64,000 nucleotides of DNA from an uncultured Gammaproteobacteria bacterium (GTDB lineage Bacteria; Patescibacteriota; Microgenomatia; UBA10105; UBA927). Under the pieces are notes generated by a model, which ran no database searches, was not told where the DNA came from, and saw only the letters and a program-made list of their open reading frames with translations. The position numbers and the translations under genes were made by a program. The stretch lies in assembly GCA_964527425.1 (NCBI GenBank), contig CAZGOA010000004.1:35691-99690 (forward strand), read 5' to 3'. Numbering within the stretch: the first letter of the stretch is position 1; each line of letters starts with the position of its first letter. This document shows, piece by piece, positions 6,360 to 63,082 of this stretch.

Positions 6360-6436
6360 TCAAGAATGAGAATTTGTGGTTAATCTACGTGAAATGAAAA
6401 AATATTAGTTTTCACGATCAGTACGCGACATTCTGC

Positions 6437-7669: not shown

Positions 7670-7685
7670 TTTTTAATAAACATAT

Positions 7686-10285: not shown

Positions 10286-10289
10286 CCCA

Positions 10290-14701: not shown

Positions 14702-14891
14702 GCGTTCCTTTCTTAATTAAATTAAATAGTAATAGTATATAGAAATGGTCGTGGAAAAGTGTATATCTTTTTGATTTGTTTATCAAATCAACAAAATTCC
14801 TCTTTTCTTTTTTGGATATTTCGGTTTTTTCTGTTGATAAAGACGTGGATAAATCAGGTCTCCTTGTTGATATGTGGAAAAACAAAAAAAT
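14702..14891. promoter_or_regulatory. Candidate oriC segment: AT-rich dnaA-dnaN intergenic region with a cluster of DnaA-box-like 9-mers
   Basis: TGTTGATAA (14832-14840), cGTGGATAA (14844-14852), TGTGGAAAA (14873-14881), cGTGGAAAA (about 14750) and TTTGGATAT (about 14812). An AT-rich stretch at 14711-14750 is a possible DNA unwinding element. Confidence 0.55.
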
Positions 14892-16316
14892 CTACGTGAA
14901 TAACTGAGACCTTATCCCCACAAGAGCGTCTTTCATTTGTTGATTTGTTAACAACTCCTTTTCGATTGTTTCAATACCATGAAGGACTGTTGAATGATCC
15001 CTTCCTCCCAAAAGCCCACCGATATCATCAAGCGTTACTTTTAGCTCTTTGTAGCAAAGGTACATAATCAATTGACGTGGGCGGGCGATTGGTCTATCTC
15101 TTTTGGGTCCCTTAAGGTGCATTGGTTTAATTTCAAAATACGCAGAAACAGCCTCCAAAATGTCTAGAGGAGTTACGCGTTTAGAAAATGACTGTTTAGA
15201 AGAAACAGCCTGTGGTTGAGGACTTTCTGGGTCTATGTTTAACATCCTTCCTACTGTTTCCGGAGAAATTTCAATTTTTTTGATCGCAACCTCATTTAAT
15301 AGTTTTCGTAAAAATCCTTCTAACGCACGCGTGTCTGTGTGGGCAGAAGCTATTAGTTGAGCAACCTGGCTTGAAACAGGTATGTTTAATGCCTGTGCTT
15401 TTATGTTTACGATAGCAACTCGCAGCTCAAAATCTGGTGCTGCTACATCGACGGTTAAACCACCCTCAAAACGAGACCTGAGCCTGTCTTCAAGTTTTGC
15501 TATTTCTGAAGGGGGTCTATCGCTTGTAAGGATAATTTGCCCTCCTTCTCTGTGCACCGCATTAAACGTATGGAAAAACTCTTCTTGAGCAGTTTGTTTG
15601 CCAGCAATAAATTGAACATCATCTATAAGAAGAAGCTCTGCCGAGCGATAGCGCTGCTTAAGCTGAAGGCCCGTTTTTTTTTGTATTGCCTCAACTATCT
15701 GGTTTAGAAACTCTTCACCCATAGCGTAGACAATTTTTATATGTGGTCTTTTTTTTAGCACTTCATTTGCTACTGCATGCATAAGGTGTGTTTTTCCCAC
15801 ACCAACACCACCATATAAAAACAACGGGTTGTATGCTGTTCCTGGAGAACGTGCCACCGCTGTTGCAGCAGCGTGTGCCAGTTGATTGCTGGGAGACACA
15901 GCGAACGATTCAAATGTTGCATCTGGTCGAATATGCAGTTTTTTTGCTATGGAAGCAACATCTTGAGAAGAACGAACCACCTGTTCTGCAAACAACGGGC
16001 CAGCTAATTCTGGTTTTAAATCAGATTTTTTTACCAAAGAAGTAAACACGAGACTTGTGTTTTCTTTTGTTAGTTGGTCTAGAATTCCCTTTATCAGTGA
16101 ATAGTACCGTGATTCTACCGTAAGCCGCATCCCTGGATTTATGGCTATAGTGGCTACTCCCTGATGAAAGCTTTGGAGTTCTGATTTTGCGAACGCTGTT
16201 TTATAAATTGCCTCAGAAACACTCATTTCCAACTCTGATTGTACTGATTTCCAAAGTTTGACTGTATCCATAGAAGAAACCACAAGGGGCAAACACAAGT
16301 GGGTAAAAGTATCCAC
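14892..16316 (-). CDS. dnaA: Chromosomal replication initiator protein DnaA
   Basis: AAA+ Walker A GGVGVGKTHL and the C-terminal DNA-binding helix-turn-helix region (LKVTLDDIGGLLGGRDHSTVLHGIE). Confidence 0.9.
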   Translation of the reverse strand: MDTFTHLCLPLVVSSMDTVKLWKSVQSELEMSVSEAIYKTAFAKSELQSFHQGVATIAINPGMRLTVESRYYSLIKGILDQLTKENTSLVFTSLVKKSDLKPELAGPLFAEQVVRSSQDVASIAKKLHIRPDATFESFAVSPSNQLAHAAATAVARSPGTAYNPLFLYGGVGVGKTHLMHAVANEVLKKRPHIKIVYAMGEEFLNQIVEAIQKKTGLQLKQRYRSAELLLIDDVQFIAGKQTAQEEFFHTFNAVHREGGQIILTSDRPPSEIAKLEDRLRSRFEGGLTVDVAAPDFELRVAIVNIKAQALNIPVSSQVAQLIASAHTDTRALEGFLRKLLNEVAIKKIEISPETVGRMLNIDPESPQPQAVSSKQSFSKRVTPLDILEAVSAYFEIKPMHLKGPKRDRPIARPRQLIMYLCYKELKVTLDDIGGLLGGRDHSTVLHGIETIEKELLTNQQMKDALVGIRSQLFT

Positions 16317-37935: not shown

Positions 37936-39384
37936 TTATATTTTAAGTGGACGTCTTTGATCATGAGAACCAGGTGGAAAAACTTGTAACTGTGATTTTT
38001 TGTGCATTTCGTCAATTGTATGTGCTCCTACATAACTCATACCGGAGCGCAAACCCCCTTCTAGATTCGTAAGTATCTTTACAACACTTCCTTTATATGG
38101 AGTGAACGTCGTTCTGCCTTCTGGTACATAACGATCTGCATTTGTGGTTGATCCTCCGATATCTTTCCTCTTCATAAAGGCAGATGCTGACGCCATACCT
38201 CTCACCATTTTTTGCAATGTGCCATCGACAACAACTGCTTCTCCTGGACATTCTAAGGTTCCAGCAAATAAAGAACCAATCATAACGGCGTGAGCGCCTG
38301 CAGCAATAGCGATCGAAACATCTCCTGGGACCCTAATACCACCATCGGCAATAAGAGGAATGTGTTCTCGTTTGAGAGCCTGGGCAATATGTATGATCGC
38401 AGTTACTTGAGGAATACCTGCACCTGCTACATCGCGGGTTTCACATACAAAACCTGGTCCAATACCGATTTTTATCCCTTTTGCTCCGTTATCTGCAAGA
38501 AATAGTGCTCCTTCTGCAGTAGCAACGTTTCCTGCAATAATTGGAGTTTTTATTTTTTCTTGTACTATCAGTTTTCGCAACATTTGTTTTGTATATACAT
38601 GATGACCATGAGCAATATCTAAAACCAGCACATCCACGCCAGCTTTAACAAGTAATACAGCTCTTTCTATGTCTGATTCTTTAACGCCTATTGCACCGCC
38701 AACAAGCAAACGTCCATGCGTATCCAATGATGCGCGAGGGTATGAAGTAAAATAATGAGCGTCTCTTAAGGTATATACGCCATATAGTTTATGTGAAGCA
38801 TCAATGATTGGAAGTTTTTCTATTCTATTTTTTTTCATAAGTTGAACTGCTTCAGTTAAGGTTGTTCCCGGTTTTGCAGTTACTAATTTTTTAAGCGGTG
38901 TAAAAACGGAATTAAGAGGTTTGTGTTCCTCACCGGCTAATAAATCTCTTGGAGTAACAATTCCTGAAATTGTTCCATTAAATTCTCTATCTTTATATAC
39001 CATTAAGTATCCGCGTTTATGTTTGTCCATTAAGGAAAGAACGTCCTTTATTATTGTGTTTTCGGAAACTATAGGGGGTATTTCCTCCATTGTTCTCATG
39101 TGTTCTTTTACTTTTAGTATTTCGTCTGCTTGTTCTTGTGGCGTCATAAATCTATGAATAATACCAATACCCCCATGAAGCGCCATTGTTATCGCCATTG
39201 GTGACTCTGTCACGGTGTCCATGTTGGCTGAAATAATAGGGAGTTGAAGTTTTGGACAACCCAAAGCGATAGATGTTTGTGTTGATATTTGGTCATTATA
39301 TCGTGATGTTATATCGGAAAAGGCTGGTACTAATCTGACATTTTCAAAAGAATATCCCTCTGTAATGAGTTTTTGTTGCTTCAT
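37936..39384 (-). CDS. guaB: Inosine-5'-monophosphate dehydrogenase (with CBS pair)
   Basis: Catalytic loop GIGPGFVCETR, the CBS domain region, and the IMPDH-like start FENVRLVPAFSD. The start is taken at the ATG at 39384 (MKQQKL); the ORF-track start at 39435 would overlap purB. Confidence 0.8.
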   Translation of the reverse strand: MKQQKLITEGYSFENVRLVPAFSDITSRYNDQISTQTSIALGCPKLQLPIISANMDTVTESPMAITMALHGGIGIIHRFMTPQEQADEILKVKEHMRTMEEIPPIVSENTIIKDVLSLMDKHKRGYLMVYKDREFNGTISGIVTPRDLLAGEEHKPLNSVFTPLKKLVTAKPGTTLTEAVQLMKKNRIEKLPIIDASHKLYGVYTLRDAHYFTSYPRASLDTHGRLLVGGAIGVKESDIERAVLLVKAGVDVLVLDIAHGHHVYTKQMLRKLIVQEKIKTPIIAGNVATAEGALFLADNGAKGIKIGIGPGFVCETRDVAGAGIPQVTAIIHIAQALKREHIPLIADGGIRVPGDVSIAIAAGAHAVMIGSLFAGTLECPGEAVVVDGTLQKMVRGMASASAFMKRKDIGGSTTNADRYVPEGRTTFTPYKGSVVKILTNLEGGLRSGMSYVGAHTIDEMHKKSQLQVFPPGSHDQRRPLKI

Positions 39385-39412
39385 AGTATTATCGTAAAAC
39401 AGGATGATTACA

Positions 39413-40822
39413 CTATTGAGTGGTATGTCTGTCAATGGTTAGAATTTGGTTTATTTCTTTTATGGCCATTTCAGTCAATTTGACTGCATTGCCAATATAA
39501 TTAGATGGAGTTACATCGGTCATCGATTTTTGTTGCTGCTGGGTTAATGGCAATTTTTTTATTAGGTCATGCCATTCATGTTGATTAAACACCTGTCCCT
39601 TAATATTTTGAGCGACCTGTTCATACGCATGTTCAATTTGTAATGAGCGAATATACGTCTGTAAACCTTCTCCTAAAATAGTCCAGTTATGAGAAAGAGA
39701 TTCTTCAATTTGTTTTTTGTTTGCTTCAATACGTTTTAAACCTTCTTTTGTGTTTGTATATGCTATAAGACAATATCCCAAAACGGAACTCATATTGCGC
39801 ATTACTGTACTACCTGACAAGTCTCTTTGCAGTCTTGATACAGAGAGTTGTTTGTTTATAGTTTCTAGTAATCCATTAGCTAGTATTAGATTTCCTTCAC
39901 TATTTTCAAAATAAATTGGATTAATTTTTTGTGGCATTACTGAGGATCCAATTTCGTGTTCTACGTTTTTTTGAGAAAACCAATCATCACTTATATATCT
40001 CCATAAATCCTGGTTGAGGTTAAGAATAATACCGTTGATGCGAAGATATGTTTGATGAAATTCAATAATATCTTCGGGAGTATTGATTTGTGTAGTAATT
40101 AAGGAAGGAGTTAAATCCAATGACGAAATAAAGTATGTAGTGAAATCTATCCAGTCAATGTGGGGATAGGAAAGTGATAACGCATTATAATTACCAACTG
40201 CACCATTCAGTTTTCCTGTTAGTGGCTGGAACACAAGTTTTTTATATTCTTTTGCTAAACGATGAGTAAAAACGACGAGTTCTTTCCCTAGCGTTGTTGG
40301 TACAGCTGGTTGACCATGAGTACGTGCTAACATTGGTTGAGATTTATAGGTATTAGCCATGCGTATTAACTCTTGAATAAGTTCTTTTACTATCGGAATT
40401 AATACCTGTGTTGTTGCATTTTTTAACATTAAGCGATAAGCAATATTATTAATATCTTCTGAAGTAAGTCCTAAATGGATTGCATATGTTAGATTTTTGA
40501 GCGAAGTATTACTTAACCATTCTGCGAGAGTATATTCTACGGCTTTGACATCATGACGGTATGTTTCTTCTCGTTGTTTTATAGAGACAATATCTTCCGT
40601 ACTGAGTGATTCGTTTAGATGGGTTAAATAATGTATTTCTTTTTTTGTGAGTGGACGAATGACCTTATATTTGCTTAATGCAAGTAAATAGTTCGTTTCT
40701 ATAGCAATTCTATTTCGAATTAATGCAGATTCAGAAAGAAACGGAGAGAGTTGTTGTGTGATATTGGAATATCGACCATCTATCGGAGATATGGCAAAAA
40801 ACGAATCATTCATTGTATGCAC
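39413..40822 (-). CDS. purB: Adenylosuccinate lyase
   Basis: ISPIDGRYSN is the N-terminal signature, and the fumarase/lyase family signature is present across 469 aa. Confidence 0.8.
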   Translation of the reverse strand: MHTMNDSFFAISPIDGRYSNITQQLSPFLSESALIRNRIAIETNYLLALSKYKVIRPLTKKEIHYLTHLNESLSTEDIVSIKQREETYRHDVKAVEYTLAEWLSNTSLKNLTYAIHLGLTSEDINNIAYRLMLKNATTQVLIPIVKELIQELIRMANTYKSQPMLARTHGQPAVPTTLGKELVVFTHRLAKEYKKLVFQPLTGKLNGAVGNYNALSLSYPHIDWIDFTTYFISSLDLTPSLITTQINTPEDIIEFHQTYLRINGIILNLNQDLWRYISDDWFSQKNVEHEIGSSVMPQKINPIYFENSEGNLILANGLLETINKQLSVSRLQRDLSGSTVMRNMSSVLGYCLIAYTNTKEGLKRIEANKKQIEESLSHNWTILGEGLQTYIRSLQIEHAYEQVAQNIKGQVFNQHEWHDLIKKLPLTQQQQKSMTDVTPSNYIGNAVKLTEMAIKEINQILTIDRHTTQ

Positions 40823-40900
40823 ATAGTATCACGCCCTCTGTTGCATACAAAGATTCAGAGTAGTAGTCTTTGATATGGTTATTGTAAGAAAGGAAATATC

Positions 40901-42346
40901 ATGAATGTGTATACAAAACGACGGCCCAATTCAATTGCTATTGTGGGAGTTGGATTAGGGGATGAAGGAAAAGGACGGATAGTTGATGATACGATTGGAT
41001 CGTTAGTAAAGAAGAAAAACATTAATAAAGTATATGTAGTACGCTTTCAAGGGGGTAGCAATTCGGGTCATACGATCGAATTTAAAGGTAAACGAATTGC
41101 TTTGCATCAAGTTCCTTCAGGAATTTTTTATTCTCAAGTTACTGGATTTATCGATAGAGGAATGGTTATTCATCCTGAAGATCTTTCTGTAGAAATTGGA
41201 TATGTTGAAAAGATAATTGGTGATACCAGGGGTAAATTGTATCTTTCTGAAGAAGCAATTTTAGTAACAGATTTAGAGCGAGCAGAGGAACTTCTTAATC
41301 GTAAGAAACAGGGAAAAGCCTCCGGTGGAACAGGAAGGGGCATAGGACCATCGTATGCACATCACTACGATCGTTTAGGATTACACATACACGATTTAAT
41401 GCATACTGCGTGGAAGGAAGTATTGGGTGCTCATTACGATAGATACACGAAAGAATTTGAGGCGTTTGGAGAAAGTATTGCCGATATTCAGGTTCCTGAT
41501 TTTGAACAGTCGAAAACATTAAATAAACCAGTGTTAAAAGCTATTGGTTCGAAAAAGCACTTTCTGGAACGAATGGGTGAAACTCGTTCATGGTTACAAA
41601 GAAGAAAAATAGTTACCAATCTATATCCCTTGCATCATGAAATATATTCGAATATGAGGGCTGCGGTTGTATTTGAAGGAGCTCAGGCGTTAGCGTTGCA
41701 TCCCTGGTTGGGAACAATTCCTGATACTACTGCGTCAAACACGTCAGCTTTTGGTATTCAGGAAGGCACCGGATATTGGCTTTTAAGCATGTTAGAAGAA
41801 GTTATTGGTGTGTTTAAATTAACGTACACATCAAGTGTTGGTGCACGACGTATGCCCACACAAATATATATTCCTAAGGAAAAAGAGTTGCCATTATCAA
41901 ATCCAACGGAAGATCAAGAATGGGCTACGTATGTTATTGAAAAAGCACATGAATATGGTACTACTACAAAACGGAGAAGGGATATTCTTCATTTAGACTT
42001 ACCGATGTTACTCTACAATTGCAAAATGAGTGGTATTACTTCTTTGGCAGGTACACATTTAGATATTGCACGACCGAATACTAATATAAAAGTATGTATT
42101 GGGTATAAAGATAAGAAAGGTAATACAGTTTTGTATCAGCCGGGATTACGGTATTTAGAGGGAGTCGTTCCTGTCTATAAAGAACTAGCAGGTTGGGGGG
42201 GAGAGACAGTATCAAGTATTAAAGAAGCAAAACAATTTCCTAAACAAGCACTACAGTACTTAACATTTATTGAAAAATATTTAGGTTTACCTTTTTCTCT
42301 TGTAACAACGGGACCTGCTCGTGATCAATTAGTAACTATGCGATAA
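40901..42346 (+). CDS. purA: Adenylosuccinate synthetase (long, divergent form)
   Basis: P-loop VGLGDEGKGRIVD corresponds to the GDEGKGK motif. It is paired with purB. Confidence 0.7.
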   Translation: MNVYTKRRPNSIAIVGVGLGDEGKGRIVDDTIGSLVKKKNINKVYVVRFQGGSNSGHTIEFKGKRIALHQVPSGIFYSQVTGFIDRGMVIHPEDLSVEIGYVEKIIGDTRGKLYLSEEAILVTDLERAEELLNRKKQGKASGGTGRGIGPSYAHHYDRLGLHIHDLMHTAWKEVLGAHYDRYTKEFEAFGESIADIQVPDFEQSKTLNKPVLKAIGSKKHFLERMGETRSWLQRRKIVTNLYPLHHEIYSNMRAAVVFEGAQALALHPWLGTIPDTTASNTSAFGIQEGTGYWLLSMLEEVIGVFKLTYTSSVGARRMPTQIYIPKEKELPLSNPTEDQEWATYVIEKAHEYGTTTKRRRDILHLDLPMLLYNCKMSGITSLAGTHLDIARPNTNIKVCIGYKDKKGNTVLYQPGLRYLEGVVPVYKELAGWGGETVSSIKEAKQFPKQALQYLTFIEKYLGLPFSLVTTGPARDQLVTMR

Positions 42347-42358
42347 GAACGGCAGTTT

Positions 42359-43501
42359 CTAGTAATTTTTACCAGGATTTGTAATTATTAAATTGTGAGG
42401 GTGGCTTTCAGTAAGCGAAGCAGTAGTAATTTTTATAAATTGAGAGTGTTCATTCAGTTCTTTAATAGTTTTGCATCCTACATAATAGCATCCTGATGTA
42501 ATTCCACCGGTCATTTGGTTGATTACATCCTCAACAGTTCCGGTTATGGGAACTAGTCCTTCTACCCCTTCTGCAACAAGAACTCTTTCAGAGTAATTTT
42601 TTCCATGAAATTCATCTTCTGACTTTATTTTTGTTCCTTGTTCCATGGCTCCAATAGAACCCATACCTCTATATGCTTTAAAAGAATATATTTCCTGATC
42701 GTCTTTAAGTATATCTTTAAATCGAGCGGGAACATGCTGTTTTTTAAGCATCACTTTCTCTCCTGGTGATTCTTCTGTCTGTGCAAACATTCGTCCCATC
42801 ATAACCATTGATGCACCAGCTGCAAATGCTTTAACCATGTCTCCTGAATATTTAATGCCCCCATCAGCAATCACGGGAATACCAGCTGGGTTACCTGCCC
42901 TGGAAGTTTCTGCTATAGCGGTTAATTGCGGAACTCCCATCCCAGAAATTATTCGTGTTGTACATATCGCTCCCGGGCCCATACCCACACGCAAACAATC
43001 TACACCTGCCTGTATGAGTGCTTGTGCCCCATCGTAGGTAGCTACATTTCCAGCCATAATTTGTATAGACGGATGTTGAGATTTAAGCCACGAAACTGCC
43101 TTAATTATTGAACTAGAGTGACCATGAGCTGAATCGACACAAAGGATATCAACATTCGCTTGAATAAGTGCGAGTGCTCGTTCTTCAAAACCAGATGAGG
43201 CACCAATTGCAGCACCCACTAATAGATTTTTATTTTTTACTTTTTTTATTTCTTCTACTTGATGCTCAACAGTAAGATTTCTGTGAATAATCCCAATTCC
43301 TCCAAGTGTAGCTAAGGAAATTGCTAATGTGCTTTCAGTGACAGTATCCATGGGTGCAGAAACAAACGGAGCATCTAGCGTAATTGTTTTCGTAAGATTT
43401 GTTTTGAGGGAAATGTCTTGTCTTTGAAAATCAGCAAAACGGGGCAATAAAAGGACATCGTCGTATGTTAAGTATTCTGGTAAGTTTGATAGTTTATTCA
43501 T
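42359..43501 (-). CDS. guaC: IMPDH/GMP reductase family protein without CBS domains (likely GMP reductase)
   Basis: [11 protein letters not shown] catalytic loop, TIM barrel, 380 aa, and no CBS insert. Confidence 0.55.
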
Positions 43502-52248: not shown

Positions 52249-52695
52249 ATGAAATGTCCATATTGTTCTCATGATCAAACTGATGTAATAGAAAAGAGAG
52301 ATACGAAGGAAGGTACTGTAACAAGACGCAGACGTACATGTGTGCATTGCCAAAAGCGATTTACCACATACGAGCGTGTTGAACATGTGCCGATTACAGT
52401 AATTAAAAAGGATCAACGTAGAGAAACGTTTGATCGAGAAAAATTAAAACGAGGAATATGGAGAGCAAGTGGAAAGACAAAAATTACAGCATCTGATGTC
52501 GATAGAATTGTTGATGAGGTAGAACGAGAATTAATCGGGGGAGAAAGTACTGAAATTAAGAGTCAACAGATAGGAGAACTAGTTGCAAAAAGATTAAAAT
52601 CGTTAGATAAAGTAGCATATATTCGATTTGCTAGTGTATTTAAACGATTTGTAGACGTTGAGGAGTTTGAAAAAGAACTCAAAAAACTAATTTAA
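52249..52695 (+). CDS. nrdR: Transcriptional repressor NrdR
   Basis: MKCPYCSHDQTDVIEKRD...RRRRTCVHCQKRFTTYERVE is the zinc ribbon plus ATP-cone arrangement. Confidence 0.9.
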   Translation: MKCPYCSHDQTDVIEKRDTKEGTVTRRRRTCVHCQKRFTTYERVEHVPITVIKKDQRRETFDREKLKRGIWRASGKTKITASDVDRIVDEVERELIGGESTEIKSQQIGELVAKRLKSLDKVAYIRFASVFKRFVDVEEFEKELKKLI

Positions 52696-52755: not shown

Positions 52756-52769
52756 TGACAACATATTGT
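52756..52769 (+). promoter_or_regulatory. Putative NrdR box upstream of nrdJ
   Basis: gACAACATATTGTc. The arms ACAA/TTGT flank an AT-rich centre, resembling the NrdR-box consensus acaCwAtATaTwGtgt. It lies 42 nt upstream of the nrdJ ATG. Confidence 0.4.
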
Positions 52770-52810
52770 CTGCTAGCCATTGTTTGGATGGTCATTGCAA
52801 AGGAGGTTTT

Positions 52811-55225
52811 ATGGAATTAACAGGAATTCGAAAACAAGTATTTCTTGACAGGTATGCCGTTAAAGATGAACATGGTAAACCAGTAGAACAAACACCAGAA
52901 GAAATGTGGCGACGTGTTTCTCGTGCTGTAGCAGGGATAGAAAAAACGAAAGAGGCGAAACAGTATTGGGAAGAACAATTTTATGGAGCCATGCAGGATT
53001 TTGTTTTTGTTCCCGGAGGACGAATCTTAGCTGGTGCAGGCACTGGATTTAAAGTTACCTTCTATAATTGTTTTGTTATTCCTAGTCCTCATGATTCAAG
53101 AGGTGGGATACTAAAAACACTTTCAAACATGGTTGAGATTATGTCTCGAGGAGGTGGAGTAGGGATTAATATGTCCAGTTTGCGTCCCAGAGGCACCCGT
53201 GTAACAAAAGTCAATGGATTTTCTTCAGGACCATGCAATTGGGCAGAACTGTTTTCTGTAGCGACCAAAGATATTATCCAGCAAGGTGGTTCAAGACGTG
53301 GTGCGTTAATGTTGATGTTGTGGGACTGGCACCCAGATGTTGAAGAATTTATTACAGTAAAACAAGATTTAACCCGTATTAATGGTGCAAATCTTTCCGT
53401 TTGTGTATCTGATGCGTTTATGGAAGCAGTTAAAAAAGATGAAGACTGGCAATTAGTATTCCCCGATAAAAATGATCCAGATTACGACACAAAATGGGAT
53501 GGATATATGCCAAATTGGTTAGCCTTAGGTAAAAAACCTATTGTTCATAAGACTATTAAAGCACGAAAATTGTGGGATCTTATTGCAGAGGCAGCATGGA
53601 AAAGTGCAGAACCAGGAGTTGTATTCATGGAACGATACAACAAATGGTTTAACAATTACTATTGGGAATATGTCAACTGTGTGAATCCGTGTGGTGAAGA
53701 AGGATTACCCAATTGGGGAGTTTGTAATTTATGTTCTATCAATTTATCAGCTTTAGTTAATGAAAAAGGAGAAATGAACTATAAAAGACTAGCAGAAGTT
53801 GCCAAGATAGGTGTTCGTTTTCAGGACAATGTTGTTGATGCCGATTTTTACGTGTTTGATGAAATTAAGAAAGTTCAATTAGAAGGTGAAAGACGAATTG
53901 GATTGGGAACGATGGGACTGGGTGATGCACTTATTAAAATGAAACTGAAGTATGGTTCTAAGGAAAGTCTTCCTGTGGTTGATAAAATTTATGCCACCAT
54001 ACGCGATGCAGCGTATGAAGCATCAGCAGAAATTGCTGCAGAAAAAGGACCATTTCCAAAAATTGATATAAAAAAGCATTTAGAAGGGTATTTCGTAAGC
54101 CAGTTACCCGAGGAAATTAAAAAGAAGATAAAAAAACATGGAGTGAGAAATAGTGTTTTATTACAACAAGCTCCAACAGGAACAACATCTCTTCTAGCGG
54201 GTGTTTCGTCAGGAATTGAGCCTGTGTATGAGTTTGAATTTTTACGCAGGTCAAGATTAGGTGAGCACATCTTGCGTCATCATTTGTACGAAGAGTGGTA
54301 CAACGAATTTAAAAAAGAACACGGGAGAGAACCAGTAAAAGAAGAACGTCCTGAATGGTTTGTGTCTGCCAATGATTTAACCCCAGAAGATCATGTATAT
54401 ATTCAAGCAACGATTCAGAAGTATGTAGATGCATCAATATCAAAAACAGTAAATGCACCAAGAGCTCATACTATTGAAGATGTAAAGCGTTTATATACAT
54501 TAGCCTATGACTTAGGGTGTAAAGGTATTGCATATATGAGAGAGGGAAGTAGGCAAGGCGTTTTGGAAAGAATGCCAGCTGACGCCAAAGCTTCTGATGG
54601 TAAAGAAGAGCAAAAAATACAGCAGATTCCAGAGGTAAAGCCAAGACCGATGATTGTTCATGGGTCAACGTATCAAGTATCAACCCCTGTTGGTCAAGCG
54701 TTTGTAACAATTAATACAAATGGTGATACTCAACCGCTAGAAATGTTTATAAACGTAGGGAAAGCCGGTAGTGATGTAACTGCAATGGCTGAAGCGTTGG
54801 GAAGAATGATTTCTCTTACGTTGCGAATGCAATCACCAATTCCACCAGCCGAGCGAATGAGAAAAATAGCTTCAGAATTAGTTGGAATAGGAGGAGCACG
54901 ATCAATGGGATTTGGTGAAAATAGAGTGCGTTCACTTCCTGATGCAGTTGCAAAAGTAATAGATAGACATTTTACTAATTATCCAAAATTTCAGGCTGAA
55001 ATAATGGTGCAACCACATGTGACAAATGGTCACACTAATGGAAAAGCGCATGCGCAAGGAGTTGCAGAGGGAGATAATACAACTTCTCAATTACCATTAA
55101 TGGCAGCACAACTACCTCAACAAAAAATGGTGACAGTAGATTTGTGCCCTAAATGCGGAGAGGGTAGTTTAGTGTTTGAAGAGGCGTGTAAGAAGTGTTA
55201 TAGCTGCGGATATAGTGAATGCTAA
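52811..55225 (+). CDS. nrdJ: Adenosylcobalamin-dependent ribonucleotide reductase (class II, NrdJ)
   Basis: N-terminal VFLDRYAVKDEHGKPVEQTPEEMWRRVSRAV is typical of class II RNR. There is a C-terminal Cys4 zinc ribbon, and no nrdB partner. The start is taken at the MELTG ATG preceded by AGGAGG. Confidence 0.8.
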   Translation: MELTGIRKQVFLDRYAVKDEHGKPVEQTPEEMWRRVSRAVAGIEKTKEAKQYWEEQFYGAMQDFVFVPGGRILAGAGTGFKVTFYNCFVIPSPHDSRGGILKTLSNMVEIMSRGGGVGINMSSLRPRGTRVTKVNGFSSGPCNWAELFSVATKDIIQQGGSRRGALMLMLWDWHPDVEEFITVKQDLTRINGANLSVCVSDAFMEAVKKDEDWQLVFPDKNDPDYDTKWDGYMPNWLALGKKPIVHKTIKARKLWDLIAEAAWKSAEPGVVFMERYNKWFNNYYWEYVNCVNPCGEEGLPNWGVCNLCSINLSALVNEKGEMNYKRLAEVAKIGVRFQDNVVDADFYVFDEIKKVQLEGERRIGLGTMGLGDALIKMKLKYGSKESLPVVDKIYATIRDAAYEASAEIAAEKGPFPKIDIKKHLEGYFVSQLPEEIKKKIKKHGVRNSVLLQQAPTGTTSLLAGVSSGIEPVYEFEFLRRSRLGEHILRHHLYEEWYNEFKKEHGREPVKEERPEWFVSANDLTPEDHVYIQATIQKYVDASISKTVNAPRAHTIEDVKRLYTLAYDLGCKGIAYMREGSRQGVLERMPADAKASDGKEEQKIQQIPEVKPRPMIVHGSTYQVSTPVGQAFVTINTNGDTQPLEMFINVGKAGSDVTAMAEALGRMISLTLRMQSPIPPAERMRKIASELVGIGGARSMGFGENRVRSLPDAVAKVIDRHFTNYPKFQAEIMVQPHVTNGHTNGKAHAQGVAEGDNTTSQLPLMAAQLPQQKMVTVDLCPKCGEGSLVFEEACKKCYSCGYSEC

Positions 55226-55282: not shown

Positions 55283-55822
55283 ATGCCAATTTATACAAAA
55301 ACAGGTGATAAGGGAGAAACCTCTTTATTTGGAGGAAAACGAGTATTAAAAAGCTCGGAACTTGTTGAGGTGTATGGATCAGTAGATGAATTAAATTCCT
55401 GGATTGGAGTTATTGTTGCTTCTATTGACCACGAAGAAAAAATAGATTTTTTACACAAAATTCAAGGTGATCTGTTTATAATAGGCGGAACATTAGCAGG
55501 ATGGGAAACAGAACTGAGTGGACTTACAACCAGAGTAACTGAAATGGAGGTTGAAATAGATGCGATGGAGAGTCAACTTCAACAGCTTACTAATTTTATA
55601 TTACCGGGTGGTACTAAGGAGTCTGCAACTGTACATTTAACAAGAAGTGTTTGCAGAAGGGTAGAACGTCAAATAGTGGCTCTTTCTCAAAAAAAATCTA
55701 TTTCTGAAGAAATACTCATATATATTAATCGTTTATCTGATTTGCTTTTTGTATTTGCAAGATTTATAAACAAACAAGCTGGAATTACTGATGTGATTTG
55801 GCAAGGAATTCGAAAACAATAG
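55283..55822 (+). CDS. pduO: ATP:cob(I)alamin adenosyltransferase, PduO-type
   Basis: MPIYTKTGDKGETSLFGGKRVLKSSELVEVYGSVDELNSWIG is the N-terminal signature of the PduO/MMAB family. Confidence 0.85.
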   Translation: MPIYTKTGDKGETSLFGGKRVLKSSELVEVYGSVDELNSWIGVIVASIDHEEKIDFLHKIQGDLFIIGGTLAGWETELSGLTTRVTEMEVEIDAMESQLQQLTNFILPGGTKESATVHLTRSVCRRVERQIVALSQKKSISEEILIYINRLSDLLFVFARFINKQAGITDVIWQGIRKQ

Positions 55823-55827
55823 TACGA

Positions 55828-55945
55828 ATTGAGGAATCACGTTTGAATCGTGAGCTGTGCCGCAACTGTGAACCCTTAAATTGTGTTGAAGGGAAGTCAG
55901 GAACTCCTCGTACTTAATCCCGAGCAGGGTGTTTAGTAACAATAG
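55828..55945 (+). promoter_or_regulatory. Cobalamin (adenosylcobalamin) riboswitch aptamer
   Basis: GAGGAAUCACGUUUGAAUCGUGAGCUGUGCCGCAACUGUGAA matches the conserved core GGAA..GAAnnC..AGCnnG.ACCCGCnACnGUAA, which I recall from the E. coli btuB leader. A downstream AGUCAGGAACUCC segment resembles the B12 box. The element sits in a 165-bp intergenic region adjacent to the B12 genes. Confidence 0.7.
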
Positions 55946-55990
55946 CAACAAAGAGGAAACATTTCTTTTTGCTCTTACTGATCATTAATG

Positions 55991-56017
55991 CCTTCTTGGG
56001 AACAAGAAGGTTTTTTT
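55991..56017 (+). terminator. Riboswitch expression platform: a terminator hairpin that also sequesters the ribosome-binding site
   Basis: CCTTCTTG-GGAA-CAAGAAGG is a perfect 8-bp stem, followed by TTTTTTT and then the ATG at 56018. The 3' arm AAGAAGG is the only plausible ribosome-binding site. A possible antiterminator partner CAAAGAGG lies at 55949-55956. Confidence 0.65.
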
Positions 56018-57337
56018 ATGCCCATGTTAGAGTTGCAACAACTATTAGATCAAGTCAAATTTCGTTTACCTGATACTATTCAAGCACAACGACAGCAATT
56101 GTTAGAAGCAATTAGAACTGAACAAATACACTTTTCAGAAGCCTTAGGTAATACAAAAGACTCTCAAAACTATCTCGGTAGATCGTATGACGTAGTAACA
56201 GATTATGTCACGTTGCGCTGGTACAGAGAACGAGGTGAATGGGAAAAGTATAGACAGCATATAGAGTTAATAAACGCCAATCTTCAGACCAACTTAATGG
56301 AGAGATATAAGGTTACAGAAAGTAGTCTTGAATACGATATAAAGGATAATTTATACCCAAAAGGGTCTTTGACACCATCTTTGTATATGATTCTCAACGG
56401 AGTAGATTACAGAAAAAATTTAGGTTCTGTTGAACAAGAAAGAGAGTTGGCGGAACTGATCGGTTTTCAAGTTATAGATGAGTTTATGGTAAATGTGCAA
56501 ACGCCTATTGGTTCAACTATCGTATCGTTTTCACCTAAAGGAAGTGCTGAGCATACAGAATATAGATATAGATTTGTTGATATTTTTGTCAAACAAAAAC
56601 GAGATCAGGATGAATATGTTCAGTTTACCCGTAAGTTTGTTCGTTATAACAATGATGAATATAGAGAAAAAGCCCTAGAATTGGACCCAACTTTTTTTGA
56701 TGGATATGATGGTCAAGGAGCAGAAGATGCATGGTTTCTCTCTCATCCTGTTGTCACCAATAAAGATGTATCTTCGTTCTTTGATTTAGCTGAAGGAATG
56801 GACTTTACATCATTCCAGAATATTTATCATGACGAGATTCTTCAGTACTTAATACATGATTACTTGAGAATTATTCAAGAGACTACTGTTGATAGAGTAG
56901 CTGTAGCAGCAAGTTTTAACTGCATTATTAACAGAGCCGATGAAGTAAAAGAAAACGTTTCAAATGAACTTAATAAACCATTTTTCCAAAGTAGTTTATT
57001 CTATGATGATTTAGAAACATCTAAAATGTTTTATAGCTATCTTCAAAGTTTAGCAATAAGAAATCCCAAAACTCATAGTGGTACAGGATGCCCTTCTAAT
57101 AGAGGATATAATTTAGGAAATTCTCTTATAGACTCAATTGATGTGTACCGGGCCAATAGTGTAGTTCAATTTATTCCTGATAGATTAGACTACAAAGATG
57201 ATCCCAATTTATGTAGATGTAGTGGACGAGAACCACACTTTCACTGTCCAGGTAAAAATGGTACGTGTAGACATATTATTATTGTTGGTAAAGGAATAAC
57301 AACGTGTCCTATTTGTGGACAAGGGAAGATATGTTAG
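56018..57337 (+). CDS. Hypothetical protein (439 aa; 449 aa if started at 55988) with a C-terminal cysteine-rich, zinc-ribbon-like cluster; predicted to be controlled by the riboswitch
   Basis: ORF with no recognisable catalytic motif. C-terminal CRCSGREPHFHCPGKNGTCRHIIIVGKGITTCPICGQGKIC. The ATG at 56018 lies 7 nt after the ribosome-binding site; the in-frame ATG at 55988 is inside the hairpin. Confidence 0.55.
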   Translation: MPMLELQQLLDQVKFRLPDTIQAQRQQLLEAIRTEQIHFSEALGNTKDSQNYLGRSYDVVTDYVTLRWYRERGEWEKYRQHIELINANLQTNLMERYKVTESSLEYDIKDNLYPKGSLTPSLYMILNGVDYRKNLGSVEQERELAELIGFQVIDEFMVNVQTPIGSTIVSFSPKGSAEHTEYRYRFVDIFVKQKRDQDEYVQFTRKFVRYNNDEYREKALELDPTFFDGYDGQGAEDAWFLSHPVVTNKDVSSFFDLAEGMDFTSFQNIYHDEILQYLIHDYLRIIQETTVDRVAVAASFNCIINRADEVKENVSNELNKPFFQSSLFYDDLETSKMFYSYLQSLAIRNPKTHSGTGCPSNRGYNLGNSLIDSIDVYRANSVVQFIPDRLDYKDDPNLCRCSGREPHFHCPGKNGTCRHIIIVGKGITTCPICGQGKIC

Positions 57338-57374: not shown

Positions 57375-57818
57375 ATGAACGATCTGCCCGTTCCAGCGCC
57401 ACCTACTGATCCATCACAACAAGATCAACAAGGCAATCAACAACAATCAACTACGAGTGTTTCGTATGGAAGTAAAGAAGGAGAATCTTTTACAATACAT
57501 AGTCCAGAAGCATCGCTTAAAGCAGTTGGTCAAGAAGTTGATTTACCCAAAGAAGTTCAATCAGCGGGGGTACAGATTCAATCGACAACGGTTGCTTTAC
57601 CTCAAGCAGTTTCTGATCAAGGAGTTACATCAGTAGGGTATAATGTATCATCTGTTCCTACACATGGTTCAACAATTACATTGCCGTTGAGTGATAGTCA
57701 AATAGAGTTGGCTCTGAAGAAAAATACGAAGCAATCAATTCGATGGCTTGCAGAATGGTGTGTATATCAAATTAAAAAAATGCATGAAAAGATAATTCCC
57801 AATAAAAGACATTCGTAA
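57375..57818 (+). CDS. Hypothetical protein (147 aa) with a Gln/Ser/Thr-rich N-terminus
   Basis: ORF only. It ends 2 nt before the VirD4-like gene. Confidence 0.4.
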   Translation: MNDLPVPAPPTDPSQQDQQGNQQQSTTSVSYGSKEGESFTIHSPEASLKAVGQEVDLPKEVQSAGVQIQSTTVALPQAVSDQGVTSVGYNVSSVPTHGSTITLPLSDSQIELALKKNTKQSIRWLAEWCVYQIKKMHEKIIPNKRHS

Positions 57819-57820
57819 TT

Positions 57821-60169
57821 ATGAACATCCCTTTCACCGATATTATCTATCAGATTCAAGTTTTCTTCGTTGCGTTTTTGTTTATGACGCTCTCGTTGGC
57901 TGGATTAGTTGTATTAGCGTATATTCTTTTTCTGTTATGGAAATACCGAAACAGAGAGCATCATTCTTTAGAATATGTAACACTTCAAATTGCCGTACCC
58001 AGAGATAATGAAACAAAAATTGATGCGGCTGAACAATTATTTTCAAGTTTACATAGTATTCATCACGGAGGATTTTGGTCGTTTTTAAAACCTGCTGAGC
58101 ATATTTCTTTTGAAATAGTAGCAAAGCGGGAAGATATTCGGTTTTATGTATCTGTTCCGCATCATTTGATGGATTTAGTGGAAAAGCAAATTCATGGGGC
58201 TTATCCAGGAGCTGATATAAAAGAAGTTGAGGAATATACTATTTTTTCTGAACATGGCGAAGTAGCATTTGCAGCATTAATGCCAACAGGTGCGCCTTAC
58301 ATGCCGATTAGAATTTATAGAGATTTACCGGTAGATCCTTTATCGTCTCTCACCTCTGTGCTTGCAAAAATGCAAGAAGGCGAAGGAGCGGCAGTTCAAA
58401 TACTCCTTCAACCAACAGGGGAGAAATGGAGACACTTAGGACAATCATTTATTTCTGGTACTAAAAAAAATGAGGCAAATCCGGAAAAAGCGAGTTTTAA
58501 GGTGGATCATAAAACTCTTGAACAGGTTGAACAAAAAATAAGCAAGCCAGGGTTTAATGTTGTTGTTCGTATAGTAGTTTCTTCTCACAATCATGAAGAA
58601 GCTGAAGCACATCTACATAATATTGAGGCGTCATTTCATCAGTTTACTTCGGAACAAAATCATTTTGGAAAAGTAAGAACACCAATAAAATCTTTTTTCA
58701 TGAAAGATTTTATTTATCGATATTTTCCTATTTTTAATATTCCCTTTTTTAAGCAATATGGAGTGTTAAATAGTGATGAATTAGCAACGGTATTTCACAT
58801 GCCGAATAAGTCCATAGAAACAGCACATATTTATTGGTTAAATGCTAAAAGAGCTCCCGCCCCATCTCAAATACCCAACGAAGGATTATATATAGGTAAA
58901 TCAAAATATAGAGGAGTGGAGCGCCCAATTTTTATTGGAGAAGATGACCGCAGAAGACATACATATATTATTGGGAAAACAGGCACAGGAAAGTCACAGC
59001 TGCTTGAAGAAATGATTATTCAAGATATAGAAAACGGAAAAGGAGTAGGAGTAGTGGATCCACATGGTGAACTTATTATGGCGGTATTAAAAAGAATACC
59101 ACCATCAAGAGCAGAAGACGTGATTTATTTTGATCCTGCAGATATTGAGAGACCGTTAGGACTTAATATGCTTGAAGCCTCTACTGAAGAACAAAAACAT
59201 TTTGTCGTGACATCAATTGTAGGTTTAATGTACAAACTCTATGATCCGATGAAAACCGGTATTATTGGACCGCGGTTTGAGCATGCGATACGAAACGCTA
59301 TGTTAACGGTAATGAGTGAACCTGGAAACACATTTATCGAAGTTGTTCGTGTGTTAACTGATAGTGCTTTTGTACAAGAGTTATTACCTAAGGTACAAGA
59401 TCCGATTATTCGAAGATATTGGACAGATCAAATTGCGCAAACATCTGATTTTCATAAATCCGAAGTTCTTGATTATATTGTTTCAAAGTTTGGTAGATTT
59501 GTTACAAACAAGTTAATGCGAAATATTATTGGTCAATCTGAGTCATCTTTTAATTTTAGAAATGTAATGGATGAAGGGAAAATATTGCTTTGTAATTTAT
59601 CAAAAGGAACATTAGGTGAAGAAAACAGTAATTTTTTGGGGTTAATTTTGGTTCCTCGTATTTTACTCGCTGCGTTATCAAGACAAGATATGCCAGAGGA
59701 GAATAGAAGAGATTTTTATCTCTATGTTGATGAATTTCAAAACTTTGCAACGCCAGATTTTGCTCAAATACTCTCCGAAGCTAGAAAGTACCGTTTAAAT
59801 TTAACGGTTGCCAACCAGTTTATCGGTCAAATGGATGAAGAGGTGAAGAATGCAATTTTTGGTAATGTAGGTAGTGTTATTGCGTTCCGTGTGGGAGTAA
59901 CTGATGCAAATTATTTACAGCATGAATTTACGCCCACGTTTAATGAAATAGATCTAATAAATATAGACAAATATAACGCGTATGTAAAAACAATCGTCAA
60001 AAATGAACCTGTTAAACCATTTAGTATGGACTTAACTAAAAACATGGATGAGGTGAACGCAAAAAAGAATGTTCAAGTAGCAAAAGCAATAGTCCAATTA
60101 TCGCGACTAAAATATGGACGGTCTCGCGAGTTAGTTGAAGCAGAAGTGTCTCAGCGAGCAAGACTGTAA
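57821..60169 (+). CDS. VirD4/TraG/TraD-like coupling ATPase (paralog 2), with an N-terminal membrane-spanning helix and a roughly 330-aa N-terminal domain
   Basis: Walker A YIIGKTGTGKSQ then DPHGEL, and a Walker B-like YVDEFQNF. It is collinear with 4161..6359 along its full length. The membrane-spanning helix is VFFVAFLFMTLSLAGLVVLAYILFLLW. Confidence 0.7.
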   Translation: MNIPFTDIIYQIQVFFVAFLFMTLSLAGLVVLAYILFLLWKYRNREHHSLEYVTLQIAVPRDNETKIDAAEQLFSSLHSIHHGGFWSFLKPAEHISFEIVAKREDIRFYVSVPHHLMDLVEKQIHGAYPGADIKEVEEYTIFSEHGEVAFAALMPTGAPYMPIRIYRDLPVDPLSSLTSVLAKMQEGEGAAVQILLQPTGEKWRHLGQSFISGTKKNEANPEKASFKVDHKTLEQVEQKISKPGFNVVVRIVVSSHNHEEAEAHLHNIEASFHQFTSEQNHFGKVRTPIKSFFMKDFIYRYFPIFNIPFFKQYGVLNSDELATVFHMPNKSIETAHIYWLNAKRAPAPSQIPNEGLYIGKSKYRGVERPIFIGEDDRRRHTYIIGKTGTGKSQLLEEMIIQDIENGKGVGVVDPHGELIMAVLKRIPPSRAEDVIYFDPADIERPLGLNMLEASTEEQKHFVVTSIVGLMYKLYDPMKTGIIGPRFEHAIRNAMLTVMSEPGNTFIEVVRVLTDSAFVQELLPKVQDPIIRRYWTDQIAQTSDFHKSEVLDYIVSKFGRFVTNKLMRNIIGQSESSFNFRNVMDEGKILLCNLSKGTLGEENSNFLGLILVPRILLAALSRQDMPEENRRDFYLYVDEFQNFATPDFAQILSEARKYRLNLTVANQFIGQMDEEVKNAIFGNVGSVIAFRVGVTDANYLQHEFTPTFNEIDLINIDKYNAYVKTIVKNEPVKPFSMDLTKNMDEVNAKKNVQVAKAIVQLSRLKYGRSRELVEAEVSQRARL

Positions 60170-60201: not shown

Positions 60202-60274
60202 GCGCTGGTAGCTCAGCGGTAGTAGCACCACTCTTATAAAGTGGGGGTCGATGGTTCGAATCCATCCCAGCGCA
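60202..60274 (+). tRNA. tRNA with a UAU anticodon (putative tRNA-Ile reading AUA)
   Basis: Folded by hand into a cloverleaf: acceptor GCGCUGG/CCAGCGC, anticodon stem CCACU/AGUGG, loop CUUAUAA giving anticodon UAU, T-arm GAUGG-UUCGAAU-CCAUC, 73 nt. Confidence 0.7.
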
Positions 60275-60308
60275 CACTATTTCAACTATTTACTGGTATG
60301 CTGTAAGT

Positions 60309-62849: not shown

Positions 62850-62853
62850 CGTG

Positions 62854-62926
62854 TGCCAGCGACAGGATTCGAACCTGTGACCTATGCCTTATGAAGACAC
62901 CGCTACTACCGCTGAGCTACGCTGGC
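62854..62926 (-). tRNA. tRNA-Met (CAU anticodon; elongator-like)
   Basis: The reverse complement folds as acceptor GCCAGCG/CGCUGGC, anticodon loop UUCAUAA giving anticodon CAU, and a T-arm ACAGG-UUCGAAU-CCUGU. The GGUCACAGGUUCGAAUCC.GUCG segment resembles E. coli elongator tRNA-Met. A tRNA-Ile(LAU) identity cannot be excluded from sequence alone. Confidence 0.7.
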
Positions 62927-63048: not shown

Positions 63049-63082
63049 AATAAAAAAACCTTCGTAATGAAGGTTTTTTTAT
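63049..63082. terminator. Bidirectional rho-independent terminator
   Basis: AAAAAAACCTTCG-TAAT-GAAGGTTTTTTT: an 8-bp GC-containing stem flanked by A- and T-runs. Confidence 0.7.

Follow-up and report, generated by a model that had tools for sequence, protein, structure and literature searches.

A compact cobalamin riboswitch with a predicted terminator and Shine-Dalgarno hairpin precedes an orphan gene family in Patescibacteria

We have analysed a 64,000-nucleotide stretch of DNA (contig CAZGOA010000004.1, positions 35,691 to 99,690; referred to below as the window) and conclude that it very probably carries a cobalamin riboswitch that turns genes off at the level of both transcription and translation. 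The switch lies between pduO, which encodes a cobalamin adenosyltransferase, and a three-gene unit that encodes two orphan proteins, A and B, and a TraD-like ATPase. The element had been proposed in a preliminary description made from the sequence; that finding is real and its interpretation was essentially right, with the switching helix and the riboswitch subclass corrected here. The main interest lies in the conserved minimal platform on which the switch is built and, above all, in the orphan family that it tags as B12-responsive.

The features of the leader are listed below; P denotes a helix, L followed by one or two digits a loop, J a joining region and SD the Shine-Dalgarno sequence.

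55821-55914, + strand: cobalamin aptamer of Cbl-II architecture (Rfam RF00174, 35.1 bits; covariance model R1, 100.5 bits on 55823-55934)
55821-55825 / 55910-55914: P1, extendable to 7 bp (AGUACGA/UCGUACU)
55826-55830: J1/3 bulge, 5 unpaired nucleotides
55831-55834 / 55906-55909: P3
55837-55841 / 55849-55853: P4
55842-55848: L4, T-loop-like
55856-55857 / 55863-55864: P5
55858-55862: L5, UGCCG
55866-55868 / 55898-55900: P6a
55873-55877 / 55889-55893: P6b hairpin, 5 bp
55895-55907: B12-box-like AGUCAGGAACUCC
55918-55928, + strand: 5' strand of the predicted antiterminator, UCCCGAGCAGG, the same bases as P13
55919-55929, + strand: P13 hairpin, CCC-GAGCA-GGG, 3 bp, with a covarying stem and a loop invariant in 20 of 20 aptamers
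55930-55985, + strand: spacer hairpin H2, long and A/U-rich, present in every fold of the window
55990-56017, + strand: hairpin T, putative terminator and SD-sequestering hairpin, -13.2 kcal/mol, stem 55990-55998 / 56003-56011
56004-56010, + strand: SD-like AAGAAGG, wholly within the 3' arm of T and 7 nucleotides before ATG 56018

When the whole window was scanned against 4227 Rfam families, three matches exceeded their gathering scores: two tRNAs and RF00174 (Cobalamin), the latter at 55787-55926 on the + strand with 35.1 bits against a gathering score of 31.5 (E = 3.2e-05 for the whole window). This was the check that the preliminary description had proposed, and the sequences it had quoted were all located: GGAATC at 55833-55838, GAATC at 55845-55849, AGCTG at 55853-55857, GCCGCAACTGTGAA at 55859-55872 and AGTCAGGAACTCC at 55895-55907, as well as the hairpin, T7 and the start codon at 56018. 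At its 5' end (55787-55820), the Rfam match was forced into the PduO coding sequence, with many non-canonical pairs; we rejected this part as P1/P2, as both the R1 model and a manual parse put P1 at 55821. Because the score is near the threshold and the 5' 35 nucleotides are misaligned, RF00174 was not relied on alone, and the firm evidence for a riboswitch is comparative. In the window itself, all 24 of the aptamer pairs are canonical, and the helices are recovered by unconstrained minimum free energy (MFE) folding.

For this comparison, relatives of protein A were collected with a word-indexed search, which gave 19, and with a profile search, which gave 776 clusters at 50% identity; E was 1e-30 or lower for 334. 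DNA was fetched around relatives 20-75% identical to the window protein; the loci carry three-digit L numbers below. The organism names attached to the relatives are Patescibacteria and Candidatus Levyibacteriota, and several of their TPA_asm records are titled "uncultured Gammaproteobacteria"; the gene content agrees with loci of the candidate phyla radiation (CPR). Of the independent loci with upstream sequence retained, all 18 have a cobalamin-clan aptamer directly before the family-A gene. Rfam finds cobalamin-clan matches upstream of A in L005, L006/L007, L008, L009, L012, L013, L014, L016, L018, L019, L020, L021, L022 and L025, the orthologous leaders scoring 29.3-58.5 bits with RF00174, RF01482 or RF01689. 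The covariance model R1, built from 13 family-A leaders, recovers all of the Rfam-positive leaders and also finds the non-training leaders L011, L015, L020, L028 and L029 at 38-70 bits.

It could be argued that the aptamer is a decayed relic and that hairpin T is simply a constitutive terminator of an nrdJ-pduO operon; the low Rfam score and the position right after pduO would fit such an arrangement. We consider this very unlikely. The aptamer also precedes A at eight loci with a gene other than pduO upstream (L008, L009, L012, L016, L018, L019, L020 and L025), and because the association persists there, the aptamer is the 5' leader of the family-A genes and not a 3' feature of pduO. Furthermore, the aptamer helices have been kept by compensatory changes, and the loop of T has been kept complementary to P13.

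An initial MAFFT alignment of the aptamers (A2) misaligned P1 and P3 between architectures and was replaced by an anchored per-helix parsing and a covariance-model alignment of 20 aptamers (A3). Because A3 is fitted to the structure and so favours pairing, its values, 82.6% paired cells compared to 64.4% in shuffled alignments (0/500) and a covariation score of 0.416 compared to 0.139 (0/500), are to be read beside the slid controls (partners slid out of register scored 0.013-0.117), the anchored parse and the non-training matches, all of which agree. Compensatory double changes were found in A3 in all five P4 pairs, in one P5 pair and in one P6a pair. P4 was 96% paired and P5 and P6a were 100% paired across the 20 aptamers; P3, which is badly aligned across architectures, was 56% paired. 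When the leaders were parsed from invariant motifs, P4 occurred with nine different arm sequences and was paired throughout, P6a flipped between CUG/CAG and CGG/CCG (U-A to G-C) in a ratio of 11:9 with zero exceptions, and P1 was formed by unrelated sequences. The four-way junction P3-P6 closed by P1 is backed by covariation. Membership of the aptamer in the cobalamin clan and its covariation are direct observations, and it was on such pairing that the preliminary description had said its case would stand or fall: P1, P3, P4, P5 and P6 pair and covary consistently across homologous leaders, and the RF00174 match is significant, which bears out a cobalamin riboswitch.

The conserved core consists of the L4 T-loop region, GCCGCAAC.G (P5/L5/P6) and the B12 box, all of which are present. 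The sequence CUGUGCCGCA[AG]C[UG]GU was found in 16 family-A leaders parsed by sequence, and a variant, CUAUGCCGUAACUGU, in which the P5 G-C pair is replaced by A-U and L5 is the same, occurs in three rs1 leaders and in L029; AG[UC]C[AC]G is found in all leaders.

The aptamer had been described as one for adenosylcobalamin (AdoCbl). The cobalamin part of that assignment stands; the AdoCbl specificity does not, since the architecture is Cbl-II and not the classical AdoCbl-type Cbl-I. In Cbl-I riboswitches, a P2 loop-stem-loop separates P1 from P3, and P6 carries a large P7-P11 extension; Cbl-II riboswitches have no P2, their J1/3 is short, and the extension of P6 is small, being a loop in Cbl-IIa and a short hairpin in Cbl-IIb (PMC7367189). 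In the window, just five unpaired nucleotides lie between P1 and P3, leaving no room for a P2 module; there is no P7-P11 extension, P6 being extended by one 5-bp hairpin (55873-55893). The Cbl-I features are therefore absent and the Cbl-II features present, the bulged J1/3 being IIa-like and the short P6 hairpin IIb-like. In the relatives L013, L014 and L021, P6 carries a loop alone (IIa-like).

Downstream of the aptamer, the leaders were aligned by eye. A motif 3' of P1 is present in all of them, as CC(C)GAGCAGG in most and as UUCCGAGCAGAAG in the L013 group, and it shrinks to the core CGAGC before the AUG in L018, L019 and L025. Where it forms the P13 hairpin, the stem covaries (CCC/GGG, CUUC/GAAG, ACA/UGU), and the loop core CG-N-GC is the same in all 20 aptamers except for its middle base (A, AA or C). 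In the same 20 aptamers, L5, (U)GCCG, is complementary to L13, CG-N-GC(A), with one bulged base and no variation within the set. An L5-L13 kissing loop is common to cobalamin riboswitches, L13 of the env8 riboswitch carries a bulge, and the consensus L5 is UCCCG (PMC10327014); compared to that consensus, C is replaced by G in L5 and, to match, G by C in L13. This complementarity, together with the precedent, points to a candidate L5-L13 kissing loop. In nine lineages (L008, L009, L011, L012, L016, L018, L019, L020 and L025), P13 itself carries the ribosome-binding site (RBS) or the AUG, which would represent the classic kissing-loop, purely translational design.

In seven lineages (the window, L005, L006, L013, L014, L015 and L021), P13 is followed by hairpin T. 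In the window, T is made up of CCTTCTTG (55991-55998), the loop GGAA (55999-56002) and CAAGAAGG (56003-56010), with an optional G55990-T56011 pair, and is followed by T7 (56011-56017) and ATG (56018-56020). It has the sequence features of a terminator (9 bp, four G-C pairs and U7), belongs to a class of site that is unenriched in the genome, and ranks first among the terminator-like sites of the 40 kb scanned. The union of a terminator-like stem and U7 with an SD in the 3' arm, which had been described for the window, recurs in all seven lineages with compensatory changes in the stem: CCUUCUUG/CAAGAAGG is replaced by CUCCUC/GAGGAG in L013, L014, L015 and L021, the 3' arm still contains the SD, and a pure U7 (U6 in some) leads to the AUG. 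Masking of the SD follows directly from the structure of T. Termination at T is a further inference, because terminator-like hairpins are unenriched in the genome; the strictly conserved, pure U7 spacer suggests that it takes place.

The real start codon of the family-A gene is ATG 56018. Public gene calls start at 55988 or further upstream, so that hairpin and U7 are translated as a spurious PSWEQ[EG]GFF, found in at least four database clusters (P0001-P0004); PSWEQEGFF in the window is hairpin T plus the U-run read as codons. No SD-like sequence lies upstream of the annotated ATG 55988. The untranslated stretch measures 195 nucleotides to ATG 56018, and the gap of 165 bp given previously is the distance to the annotated ATG. 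The opposite view, that the hairpin is coding and that the gene starts at 55988 with PSWEQEGFF as a conserved N-terminal peptide, might draw on the open frame from 55988 and on the four database proteins that share PSWEQ[EG]GFF. It is extremely unlikely, given that nothing flanking the peptide is conserved, that the upstream extensions vary in length and sequence, and that 55988 is not preceded by an SD; moreover, the L013 group keeps the structure, the U7 and the AUG with a different hairpin sequence, and the conserved protein begins after U7-AUG in all lineages (MER.. in L006, L013, L014 and L015). Public gene calls for family A thus begin too early and translate a regulatory hairpin. A leader peptide running from GTG 55929 to TAA 55986-55988 was also considered and was rejected, as its SD-like bases abut the start codon and it is not conserved.

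P13 and T can pair with one another. The segment UCCCGAGCAGG (55918-55928) is complementary to CCUUCUUGGGA (55991-56001) over 7 bp, one C-U mismatch and 3 bp, and the P13:T duplex has an energy of -19.1 kcal/mol, compared to -6.7 +/- 2.5 kcal/mol for shuffled P13 segments (0/500). For the platform, the state with terminator and P13 has a predicted energy of -29.2 kcal/mol and the antiterminator state -27.2 kcal/mol, which makes the two near-isoenergetic; with the aptamer included, the values are -50.4 and -48.4 kcal/mol. In nascent RNA that extends to the T loop, the antiterminator reaches -27.6 kcal/mol, compared to -18.0 kcal/mol with P13 forced. In seven of seven terminator-type leaders, CCGAG is paired to the 5' arm and loop of T in the nascent MFE fold, and the P13:T pairing covaries, from CCC:GGG in the window group to UUCC:GGAA in the L013 group. 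That P13, T and their complementarity are conserved and covary is seen directly, as is the near equality of the computed state energies. We take the conserved antiterminator to be the P13 segment paired with the 5' arm and loop of T (55991-56001); the loop of T would be conserved because it pairs with P13 bases in this helix.

The spacer hairpin H2 is predicted to bring P13 and the T 5' arm together, with the antiterminator helix stacking on it. Equivalents of different sequence are found in L005 (5941-5997) and L006 (about 5968-6045). H2 is not essential to the design, because the L013 group has the same switch logic and no H2. The preliminary description had placed the antiterminator inside this region, with CAAAGAGG (55949-55956) pairing with CCTTCTTG (55991-55998), and seven of the eight positions can indeed pair. 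That helix would give -10.9 kcal/mol, compared to -29.2 kcal/mol for the terminator state and -27.2 kcal/mol for the P13-based antiterminator, since it must open the long H2 hairpin and is thereby 18 kcal/mol costlier; in addition, L006, L013, L014, L015 and L021 share T and have no equivalent sequence. It is an extremely improbable switching helix and was replaced by the P13-based one. A pairing of the P13 loop, GAGCAGGG, with UUUUGCUC (55967-55974) in H2 was dropped as well, L005 having no equivalent as judged by eye.

On the basis of these features, we postulate the following mechanism. Without ligand, the 3-bp P13 would be too weak to persist, and its bases (55918-55928) would pair with the T 5' arm and the GGAA loop (55991-56001). 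This antiterminator would form first during transcription, block the terminator and leave the SD, AAGAAGG, free, so that the downstream genes would be both transcribed and translated. When cobalamin, the presumed ligand, is bound, the L5-L13 kissing loop (GCCG with CG-A-GC, one A bulged) would lock P13 and thereby prevent the antiterminator, allowing hairpin T (55990-56011) to fold. T and its U7 tail would then stop transcription, and in any transcripts that escape, T would bury the SD 7 nucleotides before ATG 56018.

Several observations weigh against this interpretation. The RF00174 score is a mere 3.6 bits over the threshold, and Rfam aligns P1/P2 poorly. Neither L5 nor the L13 core varies, which leaves the candidate kissing loop without covariation support. 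Hairpins followed by a U-run are not enriched over expectation (11 compared to 11.2 expected; 13 compared to 12.5). An SD-like tetramer lies upstream of 12 of 42 open reading frames, and AAGAAGG is an imperfect SD; the strongly expressed genes of the window use AAGGAGG. In three of the seven lineages, the P13:T duplex barely beats shuffled segments (fractions 0.03-0.11), and thermodynamic folds such as those used here ignore ligand, tertiary contacts and kinetics. Finally, because an IIa-like J1/3 is combined with an IIb-like P6 hairpin, the sequence does not appear to disclose the preferred upper ligand (AdoCbl as opposed to hydroxocobalamin or methylcobalamin).

Some of these points bear on a rival explanation, namely that the riboswitch is genuine but T merely hides the RBS, with no termination and with the U-run serving as an A/U-rich spacer. 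The lack of enrichment of terminator-like hairpins would be accounted for, nine lineages regulate purely through a P13 that overlaps the RBS or AUG, and the switch sits inside an operon-like gene array. Against this, an exact U7 (or U6) spacer is retained in seven lineages with diverged stems, a composition that a mere spacer would not need, and T tops the terminator-like sites in the 40 kb scanned. We regard masking of the SD alone as unlikely and favour a switch that acts on both transcription and translation.

The RNA is best placed as a cobalamin riboswitch of known type, with a mechanism known from metE. The corrinoid riboswitch of Priestia megaterium metE is likewise repressing, its L5-L13 kissing loop stabilises P13, and P13 is weaker than the antiterminator; its P13/antiterminator/terminator logic was demonstrated by compensatory mutagenesis (PMC10327014). 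The metE model has thus been tested by mutagenesis, whereas the window switch is known from sequence and folding. It differs from metE in that all of P13 (both arms and the loop) pairs with the T 5' arm and loop, that P13 is just 3 bp, that L5 is UGCCG instead of the consensus UCCCG and that the cargo is not metE. Moreover, the terminator 3' arm is here the SD and the U-tract the spacer between SD and AUG, so that a single hairpin would exert two levels of control.

The window aptamer is also reminiscent of the env8 hydroxocobalamin riboswitch (Cbl-IIa, PDB 4FRN) and of AdoCbl-II (RF01689), the best match of the relatives L013, L014, L015 and L021: all are compact, lack P2 and have a minimal P6 extension. 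Likewise, env8 has a bulge in L13 and an RBS in P13, the latter as in L008, L009, L011, L012, L016 and L020. Unlike these, the window aptamer scores best with RF00174, its short P6 hairpin is a Cbl-IIb trait (PMC7367189), and a spacer hairpin and a putative terminator separate P13 from the start codon. The riboswitches of Escherichia coli btuB and Bacillus subtilis yvrC (Cbl-I, hybrid) share with it the P3-P6 core, the B12 box and, as predicted for the window, the L5-L13 kissing loop, and they turn off B12-related genes when B12 is plentiful, as is proposed for the window switch; however, they possess a P2 module (btuB also a large P7-P11 extension), which the window switch does not, and their cargo consists of known B12 transporters.

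The RNA itself adds little, since no riboswitch class is more widespread than that for cobalamin and Rfam detects this example. It is of interest as a compact platform in which P13, antiterminator and terminator/SD hairpin overlap within about 100 nucleotides, with covariation in seven lineages, and in which one hairpin would combine terminator, SD mask and spacer, its loop being part of the switch. This makes it a natural minimal test case for the coupling of kissing loop and antiterminator, which has so far been dissected in one or two riboswitches.

The genes that surround the switch are as follows.

52249-52695: gene for the NrdR repressor, preceding nrdJ (Pfam Zn_ribbon_NrdR and ATP-cone)
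52766-55225, + strand: NrdJ, class II (B12-dependent) ribonucleotide reductase (Pfam Ribonuc_red_lgC 3.2e-123, Ribonuc_red_lgN, TSCPD)
55283-55822, + strand: pduO, PduO-type ATP:cob(I)alamin adenosyltransferase (Pfam Cob_adeno_trans 8.3e-56)
56018-57337, + strand: orphan family A, 439 residues from ATG 56018 (public gene calls from 55988)
57375-57818, + strand: orphan family B, 147 residues, constant partner of A (15 orthologues aligned, same locus position)
57821-60169, + strand: membrane-anchored TraD/VirD4-like P-loop ATPase, 782 residues, with a DUF8128 N-terminus

The stop codon of pduO, TAG 55820-55822, overlaps the first bases of aptamer P1. No sigma-70-like promoter was found on the + strand between 55283 and 55990, and because there is no promoter-like site between pduO and the switch, the latter is probably transcribed as part of the nrdJ-pduO transcript and probably decides whether nrdJ-pduO transcription runs on into the following genes. 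Among the 39 proteins of the 64-kb window, a Pfam scan identified NrdJ and PduO as the only B12-related gene products and no cobalamin biosynthesis enzymes (0 of 39). The earlier statement that the genome carries only B12-using enzymes is consistent with this result, which covers the 64 kb of the window. Across the relatives, PduO is almost always in the neighbourhood of the locus and NrdJ usually.

As had been stated before, the riboswitch fronts genes of unknown function. A (about 440 residues) and B (about 145 residues) behind the riboswitch belong to the family of 776 clusters at 50% identity. Protein A carries the motifs SPPG, NFYD and G-C-G/P-x-S and a C-terminal Cys/His module, DYKDDPNLCRC..PHFHCPG..C.H.IIVG.GI..CP.CG.GK.C., which is replaced in distant members by a simpler CP.C...C..C ribbon. 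Its AlphaFold2 model is globular, with a confidence (pLDDT) of 75.4 overall and above 85 over residues 70-320, and searches of Pfam, NCBIfam, PDB and known folds gave no match. No hydrophobic N-terminal segment was apparent by eye (signal-peptide and transmembrane predictors were not run). A glycyl-radical reading of the C-terminal IIVG.G and zinc ribbon, similar to class III ribonucleotide reductase (RNR), was rejected: the model contains no barrel of the RNR or pyruvate formate-lyase type, B has no radical-SAM cysteine motif and the C-terminus of distant members differs. An HUH-nuclease reading of PHFHCPG was set aside in turn, as the motif is missing from most of family A. Protein B has a disordered N-terminal half, an invariant LP.SD..I and a hydrophobic C-terminal helix, S.RWLA...Y.L., and has no profile matches in Pfam or NCBIfam.

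Only 2 nucleotides separate gene B from the gene for the ATPase, which is probably cotranscribed with A and B. The protein matches Pfam DUF87, TrwB_AAD_bind and TraG-D_C and NCBIfam SXT_TraD (6.6e-15). L005, L013, L014, L015 and L021 likewise have this gene behind A and B, and in L029 it is located 2.5 kb downstream. The ATPase also matches phrog_5156 (unknown function; 1.7e-98) and PADLOC mad8 (1.1e-16), so that an ATPase family shared with phages or mobile elements would be placed under B12 control.

In L018, L019 and L025, the riboswitch fronts A and B and not the genes for DUF4430, DUF6580 and PduO, that is, not those for a binder, a transporter or the adenosyltransferase, which argues that A and B are specifically a low-B12 response and not part of routine B12 handling. 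In regulatory logic and neighbourhood, A and B resemble BtuB, BtuFCD, ECF-CbrT, BtuM and the DUF4430-type binders; the likeness is one of regulation only, as there is no similarity in sequence or fold to known B12 uptake proteins. We suggest that A and B are needed under B12 scarcity, most likely, with a slightly better than even chance, to acquire, process or deliver corrinoids for PduO and NrdJ in a step that has so far gone unrecognised. Less likely, and with a low probability, they provide a bypass or host-exploitation function tied to the coupling ATPase. It can also be envisioned, as a rather doubtful proposition, that A (with a novel fold and a Cys/His metal module), the tail-anchored-looking B and often the TraD/VirD4-type ATPase constitute a B12-starvation module specific to Patescibacteria, which would be a novel type of system. 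If so, one possibility is that the module is machinery with which episymbionts extract corrinoids from their host; another is that it bypasses B12-dependent synthesis of deoxynucleoside triphosphates, for example, by uptake of host DNA or deoxynucleotides when NrdJ fails.

The riboswitch may in this way be used as a label of function that marks a large orphan family, A, and its partner B as B12-responsive in Patescibacteria, where both adjoin the sole recognisable B12 genes of host-dependent organisms unable to make B12. The management of B12 in the CPR becomes a testable question with named candidate genes. In the searchable literature, we found no paper that combines a cobalamin riboswitch, or B12 and adenosyltransferase, with Patescibacteria or CPR, and none that combines DUF4430, cobalamin and riboswitch; Saccharibacteria with cobalamin and riboswitch returned only thiamine pyrophosphate riboswitches in another organism. 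No prior description of the riboswitch-tagged A/B family was found there.

A second cobalamin riboswitch is present in the relatives L013 (1731-1830), L014 (2752-2845), L015 (1933-2055) and L021 (222-340). These sister riboswitches share the P13 and terminator/SD platform and precede a DUF4430 gene and a gene for a DUF6580 membrane protein, followed by pduO. Transcobalamin-type binders have DUF4430 as their C-terminal domain (PMC4350170), and the unit resembles a candidate B12 uptake operon of the CPR. A search of the window found no DUF4430 or DUF6580 genes.

Elsewhere in the window, in the region of 4161-12635 and 13592-16316, a second TraD-like ATPase (4161-6359, - strand) stands beside a type IV secretion-like cluster with a PrgI-like protein (6437-7669), a VirB4/TraG P-loop protein (8345-10285) and an M23 peptidase (10290-12635); the cluster adjoins dnaN and dnaA, that is, it is near the likely replication origin. 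Two paralogues of IMP dehydrogenase/GMP reductase, one with CBS domains and one without, flank purB and purA (37936-43501), a purine interconversion cluster that is consistent with a nucleotide-salvaging lifestyle. A tRNA-Ile with anticodon UAU (60202-60275) lies directly 3' of the TraD/VirD4-like ATPase gene. Such a tRNA is uncommon in bacteria, in which AUA is mostly read by a lysidine-modified CAU tRNA. A tRNA-Met(CAU) is encoded at 62853-62926 (- strand), and beside it a perfect palindromic hairpin, AAAAAAACCTTCATTACGAAGGTTTTTTT (63050-63082), with A-run and T-run flanks, resembles a bidirectional terminator and is one of very few canonical terminator-like sites, a kind of site that is unenriched in the genome.

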